Assembly (NCBI GenBank): GCA_943789275.1
Contig: CALSTM010000001.1
Coordinates: 150,001-182,000 of the forward strand
From: Candidatus Poseidoniaceae archaeon
GTDB lineage: Archaea > Thermoplasmatota > Poseidoniia > Poseidoniales > Poseidoniaceae
Length of the DNA stretch: 32,000 nt
Direction: 5' to 3'
The first letter of the stretch is position 1; each line of letters opens with the position of its first letter. Made by a program: the position numbers and the translations under genes. Positions 15,209-31,572 of this stretch are shown here, piece by piece. Below the pieces are notes generated by a model. The model was not told the DNA's origin. It saw only the letters and a list, made by a program, of their open reading frames with translations, and did no database searches.

Positions 15209-15347
15209 GTGACGATGTCGTTGCCGAGCCTCCTTGAACATTCTCCTCACAAACGAAGAGATTTCCGCTCGAAACGGGCAACTTTTCGAATCTCTCAACT
15301 GTAATGCCGTACGGTGTTTTCATGCGGTGTAAGCGAAAAGACAGTAT

Positions 15348-18300
15348 ATGGAGGAGGGCTTGAAGGCATTGAGCCCCATGCTACGCGAGACTGCCCCCCG
15401 CCGAACCGCTTTGACAATCTTCCTCGTCTCGATGTTCCTGTTCGCAGATGTTCTTCTGCCTCAGTCCATCGATTTTGAACAGAAACTCGATGATTCACCG
15501 CGTATATCTTACGCCATATCGACGCAATCTGTACTTTCTGATACGCACATTATGGAAGCGAATCCATCCAGCAACTACAATGTTTCATCGAGTGGTTTTA
15601 TTGGGACTTCGGTCAACGGATTTGAGAGCAGAATCCTCATGGACTTTGCTATGAATTTCACCTCTGCAGACTCGATTCAGTCAGCAACATTGAACATCGT
15701 TTGTGATACGAGTTCATCGTCTCCTTCTGCAATGAATATTTACACAGCATCTCCAAGTTCGTGGAACTCGAGTCTTGTCACATGGTATCAAAACGATTTG
15801 GGCTCGCCATGGGGTGAAGCAGGTGCAGATGGTGCAAATGACCGCAGTGCTTGGGAACCACCATTCCGAGCAGTGTCCAATGGAACATATGCCATTAACG
15901 TGACCGCATTTGCTCAAGAAGCAGCCTCAACCAATCAACCCCACTTCAGCGTCCTCATTTCCGGATTAGGTTCTCATTTCGAATGTAAGATGTCTGAAGC
16001 TTTACCGGTGAGTGATCGGCCTGAACTGGTGCTTGTCACATCGGCAGTGGCAGCCGGGAACGGTGGTTCAGTCGTGTCAAACTTCGCCGACGACGGTTTG
16101 CCTTTAATGACGGGAGACCTCATCTTGACAGCAGATACTACACCGACCCTTTCTTACGATTCGTTGGTGGGAACACATGTCGAATACCAACTCTCACTCG
16201 ACTCGGAATTCAAGGATTTCTCCGACCTTGCATGGCACTATTCGACCATGCAGAACAGTTTTACAATGTCCGGTACAAGCGGTTCGTTCACTCTTCCTTC
16301 GTCCGAGCAATTCGATAACGGTTCTCGAGTCTATTACCGGGTAAGAAGCCTTGATACGACCGACACGCTCAGTACATGGTCCACGACAGAAACTTTCCTG
16401 CTTCCTGCACACACAGTTACCGATAACGGTGACGGCTCGGCAAGTATCGAGGTAACTCGAAACCAATTGGGTGATGTTGGGACATTCATCGAAGATTCCT
16501 ATTCCAACGAACTGAGCAAGAACACGAAAAACGGTGCTTCAACAACCCTTCAAACCAGCGTCACTTCAAACAAGGAATCTCTTGTTCATCTGCGAGTAAA
16601 TTTACCGCTTCTTGGCCTACCATCCAATGCTACAATTCTCGATGCGCAAGTAAACCTAACTCGTGATTCCTCAGCGAACAATCCAATGCTTTCGATGCAC
16701 GAAATGGCATCAACTGAATGGGTCGAAAACGAATTGACATGGAACAGAGAATCGAATGCAAACAGTTGGTCCGATGGAGGACGGGTGTTTGCATCGACGG
16801 CATCTGCAACTGGATTCAACGGTTCGCAAACCAGTTCCAACTTTGGGTTTGGCTTCACCGACGTATTGCAATCATGGGTTGAGAACGGAGAATCAGATGC
16901 ATCAGAATTTATGATTACTGCAAGAGGGAAGGACGAAGCATACTCCACCACAGGTACCAAAACCATGACGTTTTTCAGTACTGAAGCCACGCTTGAATCG
17001 AATCAACCTCACGTTTTCGTGAATTATCGATGGGGACCAAGTTCTCCACTCGCTGATGTCATCTTAACCGGTCCAGCAGAGGACGAAGCAGTTTGGAACC
17101 AATCAGGACACAATTTCACTGCGAATCTCACGCCTTCGATTACCTGGACTCCATCTGCTACGAACAATGAGATGCTGTTGCAGATGGCCACAGATGAACA
17201 ATTCAGAGACCTGACCATGTCGCTCAACACCGGTGTGGACAATGATTTCTCGCCTTCCGATGGCATACTCAACTTGACGGGTGAAAATACATTGACAGCC
17301 GGAAACATGTATTTCTGGCGAATGGCTTACCTTGACTCTGATGGCCGACAAGGGCCTTGGTCTTCATCGAATTTCCTCGTGAGTTCCCTTGAAAGCACTT
17401 GGCTTGGTGGTGAACGCTCAGAATTTAGAATGAAGCATGGAAACGGTACAACAGACGGGTTGTATCCTGAATGTCTCGACACGTACATCGACAGCGGTAC
17501 GCCAAATCAAAACTACAACGATGAATCAAAAATTCTCATATCGTACAACACTTACCCGATTGAAGCGTTAGGTCTATTGAACTGCAACCTCCGTTCGAAT
17601 CTCCTGCCGGCAGGATACGCTGTCGAATCTGCACAACTCTCGATGGTTGTGGCCAGTACTCCATCGAATTCACCGCGTGTTGCCGTTTGGGAAAACACGC
17701 TCAGCAACTGGACGGATAGCGGTGCGACGTGGAACTCTTATGATGGAACCAATTCATGGGCAACTGCAGGCGCAAAGGGCTCAGAGCGTTCCTCCCTTCT
17801 CGATTCAGTTCAACTTGATTCTACCTTTTCAAACGGCGACCGCATCTTTTGGAACGTCACACTGGGTGTTCAAAACGCAATGCGCCAAAACAGCAGTGCT
17901 GACTTCATGATTGGTATACTTGGTGTTGGTTCAGGTTCAGACCGTGAAGTGCAACTTTATCCAGGATTTGCTGCTGATGTCCGTAAACCCGAATTGACCT
18001 TTGTCTATGTGCCGGGCTCAAACGTGGTTCCTGTTGACCCAGTGCCGGTCTCTCCACTCAACGGCTCATGGTCGATGGGTACCGGTGTTGACCAAACGCC
18101 GATTCAACGTCCAACGCTTGAGTGGTCCTTCGGAAATACCGCTGGCGTCGGCGGATGGGCAGTGCAACTTGACAAATCAGAAACGTTCGATTCAGCATCG
18201 CTTCTCACCAGCACTTCATGGAACGATGCAGGCTTTGACGCAGCGAACCTCTCCTATACTCCTACCACTGATTTGGACGATGGTTCAACTTGGTATTGGC

Positions 18301-21300
18301 GCGTTCGAGCGATCTCACCGACCAACCAAATTGGAAACTGGTCAAACGCATTTACCTTTGCTGTTCCAGATTTGACCACTTGGCAAACATGTTCCGATGG
18401 TTCTTGTGCTTCAGTGGAATTGCATCACAGAGAGGCCATGCCGGATTTGAATTTACCGAACTTTGTCGACACCTATGTTCTCCAGTCGGGTTCCGGTTCG
18501 TCCACTACCTATGACACTTCAAGCCAACTGAAAGTCGGTGCAACCAGCAACAATGTGCAAGCACTTTCGCTGCTACGTATTCCGTTGAATTCCTTACCTC
18601 AGCCGGCGAACGCTCGCATCACGGGTGCTGAACTGAATCTGTATTCTGAGTTCAATTCAGCCGTAGGTGAGCCAATTGCCGTACGGCCTGTGTATCAAAA
18701 TTGGAACACGTCCGCAAACGGACTTACGTACGACGGCATCAACAATTGGTCACAGCCAGGTGCTCGAGACCTCGGTGTTGACCTTGGACCCTATGTTGAC
18801 CTGCAGGATTCAGTTGCTTCTGGCTGGATGAATTGGGATGTAAGCGAAGCTGTGCAAGCTGCACTAACGGCAGGTTCATCGACACTCTCACTGGCCATTT
18901 ATGCATCAAATGACATTACTTCGTATTCCAACGGACCCAATGTTGTGACCTTCACTTCCACAGACGGCGCATCATCTCAACACCCGTGGTTGAACTTAAC
19001 TTGGTCCAACGGCACAGGTTCAGTACCCGCAACATCCGGTGTCAACGCTGGACCAGCGAACGATTCACTGTCTTGGGATGCATCATCCCATGCCTTGATT
19101 TCAGATGAAACCCCTCTTTTCTCTTGGACGTATCCATCTTCAGTCTCTGCTGACGCATGGCGGGTCCATATTTTTGCTGACCCGAGCGATGACATGGCAG
19201 GGCGATATACCTTTGATTCACGGGACGTTCCGGCACAGTTCGATTTGACGAACTTAACATTCTTGCCGAGTTCTCCTGTTGACTACTCCCAAACCGTTCG
19301 GTGGACCGTTCAGCCGATTTTACTCGGAATGATTGGCCCTCAAAGTACCTCAACTGTCTTCCACGTACCGGACGCAGATTCTGGAGAAGTTAATTCTACA
19401 CATGCATGGGTGACTTTGCAAGAAGGTTCGATGGTCGAAGATCAGGGCTATCCAATGATTACCATGGACACCACGCTGAATGGAGGTAGTATTTTCGCCA
19501 ACAACGGTGCTTCACAAAATCTCATCGTCGGGCGTAGTCCTTCCAACAGTCTTCTGCGAACCAGTTCTCTCATCGAGATGGATTTCTCCTCGTTACCGCT
19601 TCCAGCAATCTACGAAGTGACGAATGCAACACTGACGCTAACTGGGGTTTCGGGAAGTGGAGAAGTGTTTGTGACCGTTTCTGAAATGATTACACAGTGG
19701 GATGAATCCTCAAGTTGGGCGTTCCCCGGTAACAACACGACCTCTTGGGTCGGAGTTGGCGCATACCATTCTGATGATTCCAATATTCCTGAAACCCAAG
19801 GTTTCTGGATGAATGAATCGACGGAGTTTGAAATCAACGTGACATCGATGCTTCAGCACGCTGTTGAGAGAGGCCAACAAAGCCTCAATATCATTCTGCA
19901 AGCGGAAGAGTCGATGGGAACAGTCTCTGGAATCTATTACATTGCGAGCAGTGAGAATGCAGCTATTGACGAGCGTCCTAAACTCACGATAAGTTACGAG
20001 CTCGATACCCCGTGGAATCCGACCAGCCCGTCAAACCTTGGGCCGGTTGACGGTTCAACGCTTTGGAATCTCACTTCACCACTTCCAGCGGGCGCTGATG
20101 GAGTTGAAACCAATTGGACATCTGCCGATTCCAATCAAACTCAATGGGTTCTTTGTGGCGCTATGGACGCTCGTATGGTCGAAGAACTTGAGTGTTTCAA
20201 TTCGACTGCGTCCACATTTGATACCGATTTGAACATCACTTGGGATGCTCAGAACCTCTCAGCATTCATTGAAGGTCTCGAACAGGCTGATGAATGGAAG
20301 TATTGGCGCGTAAGAGGCGACCAAGATGTGCGAATTGGTCATTGGTCTCACGTTCACAAATTCCGCATCCCGGACGTGAATCCGTATGATGCTTCTACTG
20401 ATGGCCTTGGGAATTACACGGTCACCCTCACACGTGGTGCCATCTTTGAGAACACGGGTCTTCTTCCAGCAGTGCCGGATGCGGAAATCTCTTCCTCGAG
20501 TACGGTGAATCTTGGTCTATCAACTGCAATGAACTTAGGGACTTCAGCGTCGGGTACCGGTGAAAGTCAAATTCTCATGGAGTTTGATCTGAGTTCACTT
20601 CCATGGCCAGCTGCAATTACACCCACATCCATGTTGCTCAATTTGTACCGAACAGGTGTGACAGGAACTTCAGCCACGACCGTGTCTGCACACGCTTGCT
20701 CTCCGTTTGTAGAATCAAGCGTGAATTGGAACACCAATGTCCCATGCCAGTCCAGCGAAATTACTCGCTCGACACTCACTTTGAGCCCTGCGACAGGTTG
20801 GGCTTCTTGGGATTTAACGAGTCTGGCTCAAAGCAATATTGCCAACGGTAATTTGACCATGACCATTCTACTGAAGACGGTCGGTTCACCATCGACAAGC
20901 CACGCATTCTATTCTTCGGATGGAAGCGCTACAGAGTATAGACCTCAGCTTGTCATCGACTATGTCGATAACGTCAACGGTATATTGCCGCCAGCCCAGC
21001 CTACACTCACATCCCCTCAAGACGGCTCAGTGCTTTACAATGTGTCCGGTGATGTACTCCAATCGGATGACCGGCCAGTTCTCGTTTGGTCGCCAGTTTC
21101 TGGCGCTACGGGGTACACCCTCACCATCGCCAACGAAACTGGAGTTGTCAAATACAATTCGTGGGAATCTTCGGCCATTACATCAACGACGTTTAGATTT
21201 GCGAATTCACTTACAAGCGGTGAAGTGTTTACTTGGTGGGTGCAAGGGGTCAATCAATCGATTCCTGGCCCATCGTCACCACGATGGACCTTTGCGATTG

Positions 21301-24300
21301 GTTCACCGAACCATGTGGATAACGGCGACTTAACCTACACCTACACGTTCCAGACTGGGAATGAAGTGTCCCAGTTTGGACACACCAACATTCGAGAGAC
21401 TCACCTTAGTGAGGCATATCCATCGACGAACTTTGGTGGTAATGATGTTTTGGAACTCGGTACCAACTTTGGTTCGAACTCAGGACTTCAATCCCACCTT
21501 ACCTTTGCATTGGACAATGGACAAGTTCCACTCGCTATGTATTCAAACGTTCACTCAGCAAGTGCAGGGTTCTACCTCGATTCTTGGACAGCAACGGGTG
21601 GCGCATCGGAAATGACATTCAGTGTGCACCGAATCCTCAACCCTCTATGGGCCCAATCCTCATCGACTTGGAATGAATCCTCCAGTGCCTCTTCGGGTGC
21701 CTGGGGTGCGCCTGGTATGCAAGCAGGAGTCGACTATGAAGCAACGCCGATCACCAGTTTTGTCGATTCCAACATGAACGAAGACCGATGGATTTGGTTT
21801 GATATCGGTGTCAATGGGATGCTTATCGATAACGACAATGCATGGATCATAATCGGTACCCCGAATCAAGGCACGCTTCTGGCGAATATTTACTCAAGCG
21901 AACATTCTGAAGCAGACTATCGCCCAATGATTTTGCTGAACCATACCGATGTCACTACAATTGATATTTCACCAACTGCGCCAACGACGGATGCGGATAG
22001 CACTGTGTCGTTTTCCAGCGTCGTATATGACCATCTCAGTATGGCATCAGGAGCGCCGGTTGTATGGAGCGCTAGCAACGGTTCGATTTCCCAATCTGGA
22101 GTCTTCACGCCTTATGCAACAGGCCAACATACCGTATCTGCATGCTTTGGAATCATCTGCAGCAGTGAAACGGTCACGGTCACTCCGGGCTCGCCAGTGG
22201 AACTGATTGTAACCCCTGAAACTGCAATTATCTCTGCTGACGACTCCTTACAAATCAGTGCTTATGTTGTCGACCAGTTTGGCAATACAGTATCTGGTCA
22301 AACCATCAACTACTCACCGAGCAACGGCAGTATGGATTCTTCGACTGAAGGACTGTTCATGCCGATGGCGAGTGGTACTCAAACGGTCGATGTCACATGG
22401 AACGGTGTTATGATGACCCCACAAACCATCACTGTATCCGTTCTTGTTGAGACAGGCATTCCAGCTTACTTTGTCCTCGAAGGTTGCCAAGGTGCAGTAC
22501 CCGCAGGCATACTTTGTGCCGTCACGCACACGCTTTACGACCAGTTCGGAAACGAGATTATCGATAACAGCGAAGCAGGTGATTTCACTTGGACAACGAC
22601 CAATGGAAATTACAGTGAATCTACCGATGAGTATTTCCCTGACCATGTGGGCGATTGGTACCTCAACTTGACATCAACATCAGGTGCTTCTGGCTCTTTG
22701 ATGATTACCGTCGACCATGGCCAGATGGCAAGTCTTGAGTTGGCTGCCTCCTCAACTTCAATCACTGCAGACGAGCAAGTATGGATTAACACCACTCGTA
22801 TCGACGTCCGAGGAAACCGTTTGCCGGTTCTTCTTGAACTGGATAACTGGGTCACTCCACAGGACAGCCAATTGCTGCCTGGCGCACCTGCGATTTGGTC
22901 ACCAACTTCACGCGGTGCTAAAATCATTCAAGCAACCTACGAAACCATTACTTCTGAGATCACAGTTACTGTACAAGAAGGAGCAATCGTGTCGCTCATT
23001 TTAATCGTTGACAACAATGTTTCGACTTGGCAAAATTTCGATATCACTTCGGATGATATTCTCGATGTGAAGGTCAAGGCATACGACCAGAAAGACAACC
23101 GTTGGATTGTATCAGCGAATTGGAGTTTACTTCATCCAGATTGGACATCACAAACAGCGCTCGAACAGTTGTCTGGCGACGAAACATCGTTTGTCCCTTA
23201 TCTTGCATCGACTGAACATTACACCATTACAGCAGTGTACGATGATGGAACAATGACTCACCAAGTAAGCATCAATGTCACCGTTTCCCACGGTGACTTG
23301 AACTCTGTTTCCATAGTTGCAACCGGTAACGATGGATTAGCAAACACCGTTTTCGATATCACTTCGGATGAACACATCGACTTTACCGCTGCTCTTGCTG
23401 ATTTGGATACAAACCCAATCGATTCGTCAATCCTCGGATGGTATTTGACCAATCTCGATACTGGCGACACGTCGGTAATTACCGATGAACTGCTTGCCAA
23501 CGGTATGCGTTGGGATGCTTCGGCAGTTGGGAACTGGTCGATCTCCGCTTCAGCAGTGAGTGATTCAGGATACAACATCAGTGACGCTGTTTCAGTTTCC
23601 GTTGTCCATGGCAAGGCCGTTCTCGTTGAGGCCGTTCTCGATGCAACCACTCAAACAGCTGGCCAAGAAATCACGATGGTTGTAACTGGAACGGATTCGG
23701 ATGGAAACACATTCCCCCAACTTGTTGAATGGTTGGAGAATGATGTCGCTGTGGCCAACATTACAGCAGGTGAAAATGAAGGAACGTATGTTTACTTGGC
23801 GACCACAGCCGGTGCGCATTCATTGAAGTACACGACTGGCTCAACTGATGCTACTGTTGTGGTCACCGTTGAAGCACAGCGTATTGTCGACTCTCTTCAG
23901 ATTGATATCTCATCGACGACGGTTGACCAATTATCAAACTTTACAGTGACTGTAAAGGCTTTTGACATGTATCTCAACCAAATTGAAGTTCCACCAAGTG
24001 CGAATATCGATGCGACTGGACGAGCAGAAGTTTTGCAAAAAGGTCCGGGCGTTTGGAATGTGATTACTCTTGATGACGGGCAACAAACTGTGACGATTAC
24101 CGCTGGAAAAGTAACTGAAGAAAGGAACATCGAAGTCGAAGGAAACATTGGTGGATTCTTCAAGGCCGGTGGGCCATTGTACTACGTCGGAACCGGTCTT
24201 CTCGTGATTGTTAGCATTGTTCTTCTCGGCTTACTGGTCTCTGTGCTACGTGGTGGTGACTCAGGTTACGATGATGACGATGACGAGTATGATTACGATG

Positions 24301-27407: not shown

Positions 27408-29060
27408 TCATTCTTCGCTTTCATCGGATTCGAAAGCCAAGAAGAATTCATCGATGTCGATGACTCCGTTTTCGTCCAGGTCGGCGTTGTGGAATATGCA
27501 TCGTGATTCATCGACAGAATACTCAAAACCGAGCGCTTTCAAAGCGCTTTGGAATTCACGCAGGGTGAGGTGATTCTTACCGCCAAGGTCAGCAGCATGG
27601 AATGCTGCGAGGCGTCGTTCATGTTCGGCAACAGTCGTAAACTTGAATTGCTCTCGAAACGATTGAACCGGTGTCCTTTGATATATGGCGTGCTTTTTGC
27701 CGTAGAGGTAGTAGGTTGCAGCACCTGAAAGAACCGCTGCGCCACCGCCAATGAATGCTTTTGTGCCGATGAAACTGATCAGTACGGCACCAGCAAGGAT
27801 GCCCCAGATGTGGATATAGGGGTACAATGGGGCTTTGTATTTTGGATTCCAATCGTGCTCCTTACTTGTTCTTCGAAGAATAATCACACATGTGTTGATC
27901 ATAATGAAAATCATGATTTTGAATCCAGAGGCAAGTTTGACCACGTCCTTCAGTGGAACAAACAGAATCGCTAATCCCATAGCGACCCCGGTTACTAAAA
28001 TCGGCCAATGCGGTGTTTCAAAGCGAACATTGACTTCTTCGAGAGCTTGGGGTAGCAGGTTGTCGCGTGACATAGCAAACAAAAATCGAGACGAAGCCAA
28101 TATTCCTGCTAAGGCCATGGAAATCATTGTGAGAACGGACAAAATCGCTGCGAATATTCCGAACTTTGTTCCGGCTACTTTCTCAGCGAAAACAAAAATC
28201 GGGTTTTCTATAACGACTCCATCTTGAAGCCACCATTCACCAGGAATCGCAGCCGTCATGAGGTAGGCAATAGCAGAATAGAGGACAGTTGCAATCAGCA
28301 GGGAGAGCATGATTCCGGCAGGGAGGTTACGTTCAGGATTCTTTACTTCACCGCCAATGGCAGCGACCTTTGTTACACCTGCATAGGCTACAAACACGAA
28401 TGCTGCAGCTTCTGCAAGCGACCACACGCTTGCATCAAAGGCCTCAGTGAAAGGTCTCTTCGCATCAAAGTCATCGACAAAGAGTGCAGCAATACAGATG
28501 AATACCAACAAGGCGACCGTCGAGAATACAATCGGCGTTTGAATGGCTTTCACCTTTGAAACACCGAAGATGTTGACCATCGTGATGAGTACTAAGGCGC
28601 TCATGGAAAGTACCATGATGCTGATCTCCACGTCAAAATACGTCGTAACAACGATGAGATAAGCCGAAAAGCCAATCAAAGCAAAAGCGGATTTGAGTAA
28701 AAAAGAGGCCCACAGCCCGAGGCCGCTGATCGTTCCAATAAGCGGGCCGTAGGTTCGTTCCAAATACACATAAGACCCTCCACTGGAAGGCATGCCAGAA
28801 GACAATTCCGATTTTGAGAGTGCGCCGGGAAGGACGACAGAAGCTGCCAGAAGATAGGCCAGCCATATTCCCGGGCCCATGATTTCAGCAGCAAATGTTG
28901 GCGTCACAAAAATACCAGGTAACATAGCTGAGAGCGAAATGATGACTACACCAGCAAGTCCAGTGGTTCTTTTCAACGTGTTTTTCAGCTCGGTGCCCGC
29001 AGAAACGAGCACGCTTTTAGGTTTCGAACTTGCCATGTCAAATCCCCGATTTCCGACCAT
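27408..29060 (-). CDS. APC-superfamily amino acid permease with C-terminal EF-hand pair
   Basis: The 550-aa ORF has an ATG start (ATG 29036 is an alternative). The core has about 12 TM helices with APC-type motifs (SLSAMLPGIFVTP.., LSKSELSSGMPSSGGSYVYLERTYGPLIGTISGLGLW). The C-terminal 70 aa are soluble and contain EF-hand loops. Confidence 0.85.
   Translation of the reverse strand: MVGNRGFDMASSKPKSVLVSAGTELKNTLKRTTGLAGVVIISLSAMLPGIFVTPTFAAEIMGPGIWLAYLLAASVVLPGALSKSELSSGMPSSGGSYVYLERTYGPLIGTISGLGLWASFLLKSAFALIGFSAYLIVVTTYFDVEISIMVLSMSALVLITMVNIFGVSKVKAIQTPIVFSTVALLVFICIAALFVDDFDAKRPFTEAFDASVWSLAEAAAFVFVAYAGVTKVAAIGGEVKNPERNLPAGIMLSLLIATVLYSAIAYLMTAAIPGEWWLQDGVVIENPIFVFAEKVAGTKFGIFAAILSVLTMISMALAGILASSRFLFAMSRDNLLPQALEEVNVRFETPHWPILVTGVAMGLAILFVPLKDVVKLASGFKIMIFIMINTCVIILRRTSKEHDWNPKYKAPLYPYIHIWGILAGAVLISFIGTKAFIGGGAAVLSGAATYYLYGKKHAIYQRTPVQSFREQFKFTTVAEHERRLAAFHAADLGGKNHLTLREFQSALKALGFEYSVDESRCIFHNADLDENGVIDIDEFFLAFESDESEE
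27411..27620 (-). other. EF-hand pair (one canonical, one degenerate Ca2+-binding loop) at the permease C-terminus
   Basis: Loop 2 is DLDENGVIDIDE (27447-27482). It fits the 12-residue EF-hand consensus at positions 1, 3, 5, 6, 8, 9 and 12 (D-x-D-x-N-G-x-I-D-x-x-E) and has flanking helices (SRCIFHNA / FFLAFE). Loop 1 is DLGGKNHLTLRE. It keeps positions 1 and 12 and the hydrophobic position 8, but lacks ligands at positions 3 and 5. Confidence 0.7.
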
Positions 29061-29144: not shown

Positions 29145-30572
29145 TTATTCAAGAACCGGGGCCTTGGCGATGACCTTCATCTCTACCGCAATTGGTGTAG
29201 GCAAGGCTCGAATCGCTAGTGTTGTGCGAGTTGGTCCAACCTTACCCAGCGTTTCAGCCCAAACTTCGTTGTATCCTTTGAAATCCCGATCCATGTCGAC
29301 AAGGAATGAAGTAACATCCAAAACATCGTTAATCGAACCACCTGCTTCTTCAAGGATGCGTGTGATGTTTTCGACCACAGCATGTGTTTGTGCTTTGATG
29401 TCGTAATTGAGCGTCTTTCCATCAGCGTCATGTATTGGACCGCCAGGAATCGAATTGGTCCCAGGTTGGCGCGGTCCAACACCAGAGAGGTACAACAAAT
29501 CCCCAACTCGGCGTGCGTGCGGATAGGCACCAACGGGTTTTGGAGCTGCATTGCTGTTGACAGAATCATCACTTTCAGTAGGCTCCCAAAGGGCGGGTCC
29601 ATTGGTTTGTGTGGGTGCAGTTGAGGGCGATTGATTCACGGTTCCTTCTTCATCGTTTTGCGCATCCAAAACATTTCGTTCCCCTAAGAAGTACTCGACA
29701 TCGTCTTCATCATACTCCTTGTCGCCAGCGCCCGATGCTGTAGGGTCGAGGTGTACAACTGCACCACCAGCACCATGCAATGCTTCGTAGGCTAGGACCT
29801 CACCCGTCAGATTGTTTCTGTTTTGGTTCATTCCAGAGAGCCACCACATTGGTTTGAATGCAACGACTTTGTTGACACGTATTTGCTGATGTATGGTTCG
29901 TGAAAGTTGACCGACATCTTCGAGTCGACCTTCGCCTAAGAATTCCAAAATTTTACGGTTCCATTCATCGTCTTTCAACGAGTGAATTTGATCGTCCAGT
30001 GGATCAATTGGCTTCGTGAACATTCTGTTTGAAAGTGACATTGCAGTAATGGCAACCGCTTTTCGTCCAGTTGATTTGACAACATCCATACACGCTTTAG
30101 CAAGAACAGTCGTTTCCGCACGGTTTGCATACACATTCGAGGAAACGATGACTGCTGGTATGGCGTTGTCAGGGTTGAGTAATTTCAGTGCCACCACTGA
30201 GCCAACATCGATTGGAAATCCATGATAAGCAACTGTTCGGCTCTTTAAGCCACGCTTCTCGTTGGCTTTGTTCCATGCGTGAGCGAAGTTTTCATCGATG
30301 TTGAACGAATAGGGGATGGAACCCAAATCGTGGAAGTCATTGTCCACCATGACCCATTCAGGATTTGGGTCAGCAATGATTTGATGTCCAATGATGCTTG
30401 GCCACGTCGTCGAGTAAATGATGAGAAGGTCTGCCCCACTGTCCTTGATTCGTTGCGATGCTTCAGAAAAGGCATCTCGCAAGCGACCCCAACCTTCGTT
30501 TTGGTCTGCTGCTAAAACGGTATGTGGATGGACCGGCACGATGTACGAGCCTACCAGTTCTCCGTTGCTCAT
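29145..30572 (-). CDS. fusion protein: degenerate LigB-type (class III extradiol dioxygenase) alpha-like subunit, acidic linker, and RidA/YjgF/UK114 domain
   Basis: aa 1-275 are homologous to the upstream gene product (VPVHPHTV vs LAPHPPHLV, HGFPIDVGS vs RVDYGTITTG). However, they read YSTTWPS where the partner has LSPHWQT, and MSLSNRMF where the partner has NSLSHRHF. aa 341-475 (29148-29552) are a clear RidA-family domain (APKPVGAYPHARRVGDLLYLSGVGP...HAVVENITRILEEAGGSINDVLDVTSFLVDMDRDFKGYNEVWAE..GPTRTTLAIRALPTPIAVEMKVIA). The ATG overlaps the upstream stop codon (ATGA at 30569-30572). Confidence 0.8.
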   Translation of the reverse strand: MSNGELVGSYIVPVHPHTVLAADQNEGWGRLRDAFSEASQRIKDSGADLLIIYSTTWPSIIGHQIIADPNPEWVMVDNDFHDLGSIPYSFNIDENFAHAWNKANEKRGLKSRTVAYHGFPIDVGSVVALKLLNPDNAIPAVIVSSNVYANRAETTVLAKACMDVVKSTGRKAVAITAMSLSNRMFTKPIDPLDDQIHSLKDDEWNRKILEFLGEGRLEDVGQLSRTIHQQIRVNKVVAFKPMWWLSGMNQNRNNLTGEVLAYEALHGAGGAVVHLDPTASGAGDKEYDEDDVEYFLGERNVLDAQNDEEGTVNQSPSTAPTQTNGPALWEPTESDDSVNSNAAPKPVGAYPHARRVGDLLYLSGVGPRQPGTNSIPGGPIHDADGKTLNYDIKAQTHAVVENITRILEEAGGSINDVLDVTSFLVDMDRDFKGYNEVWAETLGKVGPTRTTLAIRALPTPIAVEMKVIAKAPVLE

Positions 30573-31483
30573 TCACTCGCCTCCTTGTGGTGGCGTTCCG
30601 GCCATTCAACAATGGCGTTTCCAGTTCCGATGATGGTGCCGTATCCGTGCAGGATGCCCGGATAATTGGGGACGTCGAGCGTTGAGAGGAGCCATGACAA
30701 TCCCCCGCCATCGCTTTCTGCTATCGCCTGTTCAGTAAATTCTGGCATTTCATCAAGGATACGTTGCGATTGACCAGTTCGGAAGTATTCAATCATACGC
30801 ATGTCCCAGAGATGCATGGCATGACTGGCAATATGTTCCTTACTCATATCTTCAGGAATGGCGGATTCAGTGGTGAAATGTCGATGGGAGAGTGAATTGC
30901 TGGCCAAAACAACAACTTTCTTGCCACTTGCAAGGATTGCTTCTCGAGTCACACGGCCGAGTTCAATCATCATCTCCTGCATGACTTCAACCGAGTAGTA
31001 ATCTCTTGAACGGTTGCTTGAAATGACAACAAGTGGCTTGTCCCACTGAGGATTGAACATATGTCCAGTGGTAATTGTCCCGTAGTCGACTCGAAAGTCA
31101 GGGTTTTCCATCATCTTGACAGCGAGCCCAGCATCAGCTGCTCGGTCGTGAATTTGACGAGACAAATCGACATCGATGTTGAGATCATAGTGGTAACGGA
31201 ACAGGTTTGGGAACACGGGGTCCACCGAGAGGCTCTTGAACGAAGGTAGCCCAAGGAAATGTGTCCCAATGTATGTTTGCCAGTGTGGGGAAAGTAAGAC
31301 GATAGCATCGTAATCAACATTGGCAAGTGATTCTCGCAAGCGCTCATACCCCCATCGCAATTGTTCCCATCCACCTTCTGCAGTGGGTTCATTTTGCTCC
31401 GGATTTTCAGCATACACCAGGTGGGGAGGGTGTGGTGCTAAGCAGCCTGCGACGATTTCGCCCTTCGACATGAGCAAACCCAT
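30569..31483 (-). CDS. LigB-type class III extradiol ring-cleavage dioxygenase, catalytic (beta-like) subunit
   Basis: Candidate metal and catalytic residues are present in the family order: GCLAPHPPHLVY, IVLLSPHWQT, LASNSLSHRHF, AIAESDGGG. The track ORF begins with TTG at 31552. ATG codons at 31531, 31483 and 31471 are alternatives. The later ones place the first His about 13-17 residues from the N-terminus, as in LigB/AmnB-like proteins. Confidence 0.8.
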   Translation of the reverse strand: MGLLMSKGEIVAGCLAPHPPHLVYAENPEQNEPTAEGGWEQLRWGYERLRESLANVDYDAIVLLSPHWQTYIGTHFLGLPSFKSLSVDPVFPNLFRYHYDLNIDVDLSRQIHDRAADAGLAVKMMENPDFRVDYGTITTGHMFNPQWDKPLVVISSNRSRDYYSVEVMQEMMIELGRVTREAILASGKKVVVLASNSLSHRHFTTESAIPEDMSKEHIASHAMHLWDMRMIEYFRTGQSQRILDEMPEFTEQAIAESDGGGLSWLLSTLDVPNYPGILHGYGTIIGTGNAIVEWPERHHKEASE

Positions 31484-31572
31484 GCATCGGGGGATTATAT
31501 CGGCATCGGAGAATGCCTCTTCTCTTACCATCTTGACCGAACCCTCAAACAAGGTGGAGTTTTGGGTGTAAT

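Follow-up and report, generated by a model that had tools for sequence, protein, structure and literature searches.

A giant surface protein of Marine Group II archaea with a conserved alternating array of CBM96/DNRLRE and FN3-like modules

Why would an archaeon carry one gene for thirteen strictly alternating modules, and what might the product do at the cell surface? The gene in question lies in a stretch of 32,000 nucleotides (nt) from a Candidatus Poseidoniaceae contig; we call this whole stretch the window, and all positions refer to it. The Poseidoniales, or Marine Group II archaea (MGII), reportedly outnumber all other archaea in the surface ocean and have not been brought into culture (PMC6461757). 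On the forward strand, the open reading frame (ORF) 15348..24569 runs through 3073 codons without interruption and encodes the largest gene product of the locus, hereafter the giant protein. Along its chain an (A-B)x6-A array is followed by eight Ig-like domains, one transmembrane helix and a cytoplasmic tail. The A modules belong to the CBM96/DNRLRE family and the order of the thirteen modules is the same in every full-length relative that we recovered, in both MGII families; our tentative reading is that the protein forms a multivalent, lectin-like surface rod. No paper describing it was found, and the literature searched held no statement on the MGII envelope. The features of the gene are as follows, with amino acid (aa) positions and the basis of each assignment in brackets (HMM, hidden Markov model; AF2, AlphaFold2).

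15348..24569, forward strand, whole gene, putative type-I membrane surface glycoprotein of 3073 aa (ORF list, translation)
15402..15473, forward strand, N-terminal hydrophobic segment, aa 19-42 (Kyte-Doolittle scan)
15522..16037, forward strand, A1, CBM96/DNRLRE module, aa 59-230 (curated models, HMM, motifs)
16080..16433, forward strand, B1, FN3-like spacer, aa 245-362 (HMM, motif)
16476..17027, forward strand, A2, CBM96/DNRLRE module, aa 377-560 (curated models, HMM, motifs)
17067..17408, forward strand, B2, FN3-like spacer, aa 574-687 (HMM, motif)
17439..18008, forward strand, A3, CBM96/DNRLRE module, aa 698-887 (HMM, motifs; the most constrained module, dN/dS 0.025)
18048..18398, forward strand, B3, FN3-like spacer, aa 901-1017 (HMM; modelled)
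18453..19004, forward strand, A4, CBM96/DNRLRE module, aa 1036-1219 (HMM; modelled, superposes on 8WAB and 7VBO)
19047..19400, forward strand, B4, FN3-like spacer, aa 1234-1351 (HMM; modelled)
19410..19997, forward strand, A5, CBM96/DNRLRE module, aa 1355-1550 (HMM, motifs)
20037..20402, forward strand, B5, FN3-like spacer, aa 1564-1685 (HMM, motif)
20421..20963, forward strand, A6, CBM96/DNRLRE module, aa 1692-1872 (best stretch for both curated models; HMM)
21009..21329, forward strand, B6, FN3-like spacer, aa 1888-1994 (HMM, motif)
21345..21944, forward strand, A7, CBM96/DNRLRE module, aa 2000-2199 (HMM, motifs)
21951..24131, forward strand, stalk of eight Ig-like beta-sandwich domains, aa 2202-2928 (AF2, Foldseek, repeat HMM)
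24177..24245, forward strand, transmembrane helix, about aa 2944-2966 (hydropathy; a conserved GGFFxAGGxLYYVG motif precedes it)
24252..24452, forward strand, cytoplasmic tail, acidic (poly-D/Y) and then Pro-rich (contains a 3 x 27-nt repeat at 24329-24409)
24453..24566, forward strand, Trp-rich cytoplasmic C-terminal motif RVDDDGTEW..GTWWYR..W.EW.E (conservation)

The modules were delimited with HMMs built from, and iterated on, the protein itself, together with BLAST searches of fragments, as a self-comparison of the whole protein by BLAST returned the identity match only. Seven A modules (172-200 aa) alternate with six B modules (107-122 aa) over all thirteen positions without exception, in agreement with what a preliminary description, made from the letters of the window, had claimed. 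The same description held that the copies are strongly diverged and that the DNA carries no repeat of the modules, and this too is borne out: any two copies inside the protein share 13-27% identity, no DNA-level repeat matching the modules occurs within the gene, and its sole DNA repeat is the triplicated 27-nt unit of the tail, which encodes Pro-rich units of the PTSGPTGPA type.

The proposed resemblance of the A modules to DNRLRE/CBM96 domains now rests on curated models. Pfam CBM96 (PF24517) matches seven stretches of the protein with 167.5 bits against a cut-off of 26 (E = 2.9e-49), and NCBIfam DNRLRE_dom (NF033679) matches seven stretches with 318 bits against a cut-off of 34 (E = 1.3e-95); A1 additionally matches the disaggregatase-related Disaggr_repeat (PF06848, E = 3.6e-13). 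A single-sequence search of the PDB gave no match and a profile was needed: one built from the seven A modules matches PDB entries 8WAB (E = 8.5e-8) and 7VBO (E = 1.6e-3). We further modelled the segment B3-A4-B4 (aa 901-1351), in which A4 is the sole A module modelled, with AF2 from an alignment of 56 orthologues, and obtained a predicted local distance difference test (pLDDT) of 89.9 and a predicted template modelling score (pTM) of 0.85, so that the folds and the relative placement of B3, A4 and B4 are confidently predicted; the model indicates a fixed geometry between these modules. In Foldseek searches of the PDB the modelled A4 superposes on 8WAB (E = 2.7e-9) and on 7VBO (E = 2.2e-6), with template modelling (TM) scores of 0.79 and 0.72 relative to the target. 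We therefore assign the A modules firmly to the CBM96/DNRLRE family.

The sequence motifs proposed for the modules proved looser than first written. An opening D[TS][YH] triplet, claimed for every A module, holds strictly for four of the seven, A1 to A4 (DTH, DSY, DTY and DTY), but A5, A6 and A7 open with DTT, DAE and ETH. The motif resembling W-x-E...TWN is present in all seven, although in degenerate form. As for the closing [RQKH]-P-x-L-x(3)-[YWH], its Pro is the only residue invariant over the seven copies, and the remainder varies (RPELVLV, QPHVFVNY, KPELTFVY, HPWLNLTW, RPKLTISY, RPQLVIDY and RPMILLNH from A1 to A7). Likewise, the Y-[YFW]-W-R-V-R...G-x-W-S strand pair said to close each B module is there, but relaxed: from B1 to B6 the strands read YYRVR, FWRMA, YWRVR, RWTVQ, YWRVR and TWWVQ, followed by G/S-x-[WQS]-S.

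The B modules are FN3-like by predicted fold only, and to that extent the earlier assignment is borne out. Against curated FN3 and Ig models they gave only a sub-threshold match to Ig_Rha78A_N (13-18 bits against a cut-off of 27.4), a B-module profile searched against PDB sequences found only non-significant FN3/Ig matches, and one orthologue carries a precomputed match to PF00041. In the model, the B3 and B4 segments are all-beta and match the FN3 arrays of fibronectin, contactin, neogenin and cytokine receptors in Foldseek, with E-values from 1e-7 to 1e-5.

The stalk was described as eight Ig-like domains and is so confirmed by two approaches, a sequence-repeat HMM that finds eight units (aa 2211-2928) and an AF2 model of aa 2198-2925 that is all-beta with eight sandwich units. 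Its pLDDT of 89.1 shows that, as for B3-A4-B4, the check by structure prediction and Foldseek that had been called for returns confident beta-sandwiches, while its pTM of 0.42 suggests flexible links between the domains. Foldseek matches of the stalk comprise NUP210, DSCAM Ig1-8, the bacterial S-layer proteins Sap, SbsC and EA1, and the GhpA neck; among bacterial Ig sequence models the match to Big_1 reaches 21.5 bits, below the cut-off of 34.9. With modules, stalk, helix and tail nearly tiling the whole chain, no gap of catalytic size is left, and no catalytic family was matched in scans of the whole protein, as the preliminary description had supposed. The A modules are thus not attached to a catalytic module of a carbohydrate-active enzyme, which is the attachment that defines a CBM in CAZy.

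The hydrophobic segment at aa 19-42 is a probable signal peptide that would be cleaved, and together with the single C-terminal helix it predicts a type-I topology for a protein that would be exported. Translation may truly start at the ATG at 15378 (Met11), which fits the orthologue consensus M-x6-R-x-T better than the first ATG at 15348; either way, no more than about 50-80 nt separate the start from the divergent gene for the small subunit of replication factor C (RFC-S), which begins with a TTG at 15298. Scans for promoters, terminators and tRNAs found nothing relevant. The protein is probably N-glycosylated: it holds 59 N-x-S/T sequons against 41 +/- 5.6 in shuffled sequences, and 14 sequons are kept in at least 15 of 19 orthologues, an enrichment and conservation consistent with a glycosylated envelope protein. 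Its isoelectric point (pI) is 4.08, and every module is acidic (pI 4.0-4.5) with 1% Lys; this acidic, Lys-poor composition is common to all three exported proteins of the window, against a pI of 5-7.3 for the cytoplasmic ones.

To what extent is this architecture maintained? A protein search recovered 64 relatives ranging from 100% down to 29% identity, nearly all of 3017-3132 aa and with names including Candidatus Poseidoniaceae, and a search started from the most distant relative reached full-length proteins that bear the name Candidatus Thalassarchaeaceae (MGIIb). The full-length relatives recovered overall number about 90, and they are colinear and 2936-3140 aa long. In every full-length one, whether from Poseidoniaceae or Thalassarchaeaceae, the modules follow the order ABABABABABABA at nearly the same coordinates. 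We also searched 1.84 billion representative proteins with a profile, which gave 14,721 matches; among the best 150, which we looked at, every full-length A/B-alternating protein is of about 3000 aa and has the (AB)6A order, and the shorter A/B proteins in this set start or stop within a module or seem to be truncated. One of them, P0101 (JGI), has 1763 aa with A-B-A-B-A and a complete stalk, transmembrane helix and tail. We considered it as a natural short form and rejected this, since it clusters with a full-length member of 3076 aa and stands alone on an 8.8 kb contig; it is probably a rare in-frame deletion variant or an assembly artefact. A scan of GTDB, with one genome per species, gave 348 matching stretches, of which the best 80 are the loci described here; nearly all of these are named Poseidoniales, Poseidoniaceae, Poseidonia or by broader archaeal names. 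Three loci (L027, L061 and L071) have typical Poseidoniales neighbours and are nevertheless filed under bacterial metagenome-assembled genomes (Verrucomicrobiales, Salipiger bermudensis and Rhodobiaceae), labels that probably reflect binning contamination of public genomes.

The modules also keep their identity position by position. Over 11 species, modules at the same position are 33-48% identical, against 17-25% between positions, and among four distant orthologues 51 of 52 modules find their best match at their own position. This orthology places the duplications before the split of the two families, with no homogenisation since. Compared with the closest species-level relative (locus L008), the ratio of nonsynonymous to synonymous substitution rates (dN/dS) is 0.076 overall and 0.025-0.156 per module, so that every module is under purifying selection. 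Conservation is fairly even along the chain, with B6, the C-terminal Trp motif and A6 as the most conserved segments and A1 and A2 as the least conserved modules, which is expected for an outward-facing distal end. The varying counts and homogenised repeats of repeat-variable adhesins were not found here, the (AB)6A order being fixed and free of DNA repeats. Taken together, the fixed order of thirteen modules, the positional orthology and the selection on every module strongly uphold the earlier view of an old, maintained architecture, and the proposed census of orthologues found the module count constant in all full-length relatives recovered.

The giant protein does not stand alone in its operon. 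Directly downstream lies the following gene.

24611..27259, forward strand, stalk-only paralogue, 882 aa from the Met at 24611 (eight Ig-like domains, colinear with the stalk of the giant protein)

Its listed ORF (24548-27259) begins at a TTG at 24548 and overlaps the stop codon of the giant gene. The paralogue is 24% identical to the giant stalk over 696 aa (E = 5e-26), has eight repeat units by HMM, and carries a signal segment, a transmembrane helix, an acidic tail and a Trp-rich C-terminus. Where the contig reaches far enough, the GTDB loci show the order 305-aa membrane protein, RFC-S (on the opposite strand), giant protein and a protein of about 880 aa, and a paralogue match follows directly in every locus whose contig passes the giant gene. 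Two MGIIb-type loci keep the core of giant protein and stalk paralogue; the stalk paralogue is doubled in MGIIb, with proteins of 1101 and 817 aa that each end in the same kind of Trp motif. This points to stalks of giant protein and paralogue that would co-assemble and engage a common cytoplasmic partner.

The Trp-rich motif (DGT..GxW[WY]..W..GxW..E-stop) is common to the giant protein and all co-operonic stalk paralogues (24453-24566 and 27160-27256 in the window; 9509-12814 and 12819-15272 in L081), and in the giant protein it is at least as conserved as any module of the ectodomain. A Pfam scan of these C-terminal peptides found no family, even at E <= 10; we take the motif to resemble DUF2510-type GWY..YWDG..W peptides, a likeness that no Pfam match confirms. 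A profile search for other carriers gave 23 matches, and the eight inspected all come from short contigs, where they are C-terminal pieces of these same operon proteins.

How might such a protein work? We favour, tentatively, the following picture. The eight-domain stalk would rise from the C-terminal transmembrane helix and bear a rod of seven non-equivalent A modules and six spacers; fully extended, the protein would measure some 80-90 nm, by a rough estimate from typical domain sizes. The A positions, each with a sequence identity of its own that dates from before the split of MGIIa and MGIIb, would probably offer different binding specificities for polysaccharide-rich material, and the FN3-like spacers would set a fixed spacing and orientation. 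The likeliest ligands, a guess from those known for the family, would be uronic-acid or sulphated exopolymers of algae or particles. The downstream stalk-only paralogue or paralogues would co-assemble with the giant stalk, and the Trp-rich cytoplasmic end shared by all partners would couple them to one cytoplasmic partner. In favour of a lectin-like rod are the retained fold, the constraint on all seven A copies and the place of the array at the outer end. The founder module of CBM96, 7VBO, binds alginate, an acidic polysaccharide (PMC9971899), and 8WAB is by its entry title the chondroitin-sulphate-binding CBM of a chondroitinase. MGII have also been reported in association with particles and phytoplankton blooms (PMC6461757, PMC6864105).

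Several observations weigh on the other side. Over 61 orthologues, the founder residues whose role in alginate binding was established by mutagenesis (K10, K22, K25, K27, K31, R36 and Y159) are not conserved, except for R36 in A1 (97%) and A7 (62%) and K25 in A4 (69%), and the founder Ca2+ ligands are not conserved either, the aligned ligand columns varying among orthologues; in this alignment the placement of remote loops is uncertain. The acidity of the modules disfavours direct binding of polyanions, a point to be read together with the similar composition of the other exported proteins of the window. A catalytic partner domain is missing, and few polysaccharide and glycoside hydrolases have been reported from MGII genomes. 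Because the alginate residues are not conserved and a catalytic domain is lacking, we can only infer that glycans are bound, as we do for the class of ligand and the role of the tail. Finally, a module count that is invariant in every full-length relative is unusual for adhesins, and on this point a structural role in the envelope fits at least equally well.

Such a role is the strongest alternative, if on the whole a rather unlikely one. The giant protein would then be a component of an S-layer-like coat or canopy in which the CBM96 fold serves as a building block without foreign ligands, the stalks of giant protein and paralogue being membrane pillars and the thirteen-module head forming a regular coat through fixed contacts between modules or between modules and glycans. 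The strictly fixed number and order of modules and their positional orthology in both families are what one expects of a geometry-constrained lattice, and the rigid geometry predicted between B3, A4 and B4 suits it as well. So do the synteny conserved among housekeeping genes, the poor conservation of the founder ligand residues, the conserved sequons and the acidic, Lys-poor composition; indeed, a C-terminal anchor, enriched sequons and a pI of 4.08 are all traits of S-layer glycoproteins. The first descriptions of DNRLRE domains concerned surface and S-layer proteins of archaea, and S-layer proteins (Sap, EA1, SbsC) are found among the other multi-Ig proteins that match the stalk model. The co-operonic stalk-only paralogue recalls the two-component archaeal S-layers: in Sulfolobales, SlaA and SlaB are a co-operonic pair, a large outer protein with multiple beta-sandwiches and a membrane-anchored stalk protein. 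This is an analogy only, as there is no detectable homology and the giant protein has a stalk and transmembrane helix of its own. A structural coat is less easily reconciled with the Pfam and NCBIfam scans, which matched no curated S-layer family, with a size of about 320 kDa, far above that of a typical S-layer subunit, or with the low pTM of the stalk, which suggests a flexible tether and not a rigid pillar. Moreover, many Thermoplasmatota are not known to have an S-layer.

Lectin-like and structural roles, like the binding of self-glycans considered below, are not fully exclusive of each other. One can imagine, as an unlikely possibility, that giant protein and stalk-only paralogue or paralogues constitute the MGII cell envelope itself, as a canopy built of lectins: a lattice of seven non-interchangeable CBM96-fold modules, perhaps binding the N-glycans of their neighbours, carried by eight-domain pillars and linked through the Trp peptide to a cytoplasmic partner.

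It is improbable, by comparison, that the giant protein binds glycans or capsule of its own or of sister cells and so organises a glycocalyx or aggregation. The idea would follow the analogy of the disaggregatase repeat, which recognises the methanochondroitin of Methanosarcina itself, and the match of A1 to Disaggr_repeat (E = 3.6e-13) lends it some weight, as do the many sequons on the giant protein and its neighbours and the proposals in the literature that flotillin and adhesion functions serve MGII aggregation. Set against these are the lack of capsule or glycan biosynthesis genes beside the giant gene in the window and a report that MGII are mostly free-living at one coastal site.

That the gene is an assembly chimera or a broken gene without a real protein, an artefact that the preliminary description had already discounted, is refuted. 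The identical 3073-aa protein is found in two NCBI records (MDA8546526.1 and MDA8727538.1) and recurs on several contigs that are independent of each other, and a polished contig of 1.2 Mb carries an orthologue of 45% identity; this excludes mis-assembly, and the roughly 90 colinear relatives, the low overall dN/dS and the absence of DNA repeats able to drive mis-assembly all concur.

How does the protein compare with known systems? The founder of CBM96, and its only member mapped by mutagenesis, is TM6-N4 of the alginate lyase Dp0100 from Defluviitalea phaphyphila (7VBO, PMC9971899). It belongs to the same Pfam family as the A modules, is a beta-sandwich, superposes with the TM score of 0.72 given above, and has the core residues V7 and W84 in common with them, as well as the motifs W-x-E..TWN and RP-x-L; the founder enzyme, like the giant protein, combines CBM96 with FN3 modules. 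However, TM6-N4 occurs once, as an ancillary module in a bacterial lyase that is secreted, whereas the giant protein has seven copies, no enzyme and an archaeal membrane anchor, and the ligand residues and Ca2+ site of TM6-N4 are not conserved on its acidic module surface. 8WAB ("DNRLRE domain-containing protein") matches the A modules best in both structure and sequence, at 17% identity, and is again an enzyme-attached single module, unlike the array seen here.

Among archaea, DNRLRE repeats in surface proteins were described in 2004, in the Methanosarcina surface proteins and disaggregatase (Adindla et al. 2004, PMC2447325), which have one or more DNRLRE domains and whose Disaggr_repeat is matched by A1; no strict alternation with FN3-like modules, fixed seven-slot array or operon with a stalk paralogue has been described for them. 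Other metagenomic arrays with multiple DNRLRE modules (P0143, P0145 and P0087) have 3-7 modules and beta-sandwich spacers of about 75-120 aa. By eye, these spacers differ from the B modules, being PKD-like in P0145 and of another Ig-like type in P0143, they do not match the B profile, and copy numbers vary. What is already known, then, comprises CBM96/DNRLRE domains, the co-occurrence of CBM96 with FN3 and the NCBI deposition of the protein, whose identical entry is labelled "DNRLRE domain-containing protein". We found no paper on the strict (AB)6A array whose modules keep their identity by position, on its maintenance in both families, on the operon with stalk paralogues or on the common Trp-rich terminus.

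The occurrence in both families and the purifying selection in every module mark a function that these cells cannot lose. The proposal that MGII attach to particles has so far leaned chiefly on genes for the archaellum, thrombospondin and flotillin. The giant protein is a prime candidate for a part in the construction of their surface or in such attachment. It offers a concrete, clonable target for binding or surface construction in MGII, with A or A-B-A units that could be expressed. It would also be a natural case of a repeat protein with thirteen individually indispensable modules, which bears on how specificity evolves in arrays of lectins and CBMs.

The neighbours of the giant gene in the window are archaeal housekeeping genes, namely those for an eRF1-like protein, FTHFS, flotillin, carboxyl transferase, GatD and the RFC small subunit. 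A 305-aa protein (13097-14014, forward strand) without a Pfam family is encoded two genes upstream of the giant gene in 63 of the 63 GTDB loci that reach there, with 41-95% identity; judged by eye, it combines a basic N-terminus with hydrophobic segments of membrane type and a C-terminal domain bearing sequons. A further exported protein of 932 aa (7021-9819, forward strand), acidic and Lys-poor (pI 4.05), has Big_9/cadherin-like domains as well as a transmembrane helix at the C-terminal end, and most loci keep it in synteny, at 32-86% identity. Pfam recognises nothing in the N-terminal third, and a stretch "HWGMGGHG" of the protein looks, by eye only, like a degenerate nucleophile elbow of a hydrolase. 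An amino-acid permease whose C-terminus carries a fused EF-hand pair (27408-29060, reverse strand; 16144-17474 in L081) lies near the giant operon in both MGIIa and MGIIb, and the ORF at 29145-30572 (reverse strand) joins a LigB-type extradiol dioxygenase and RidA/L-PSP domains, with a second LigB-family gene adjoining it (30569-31552).

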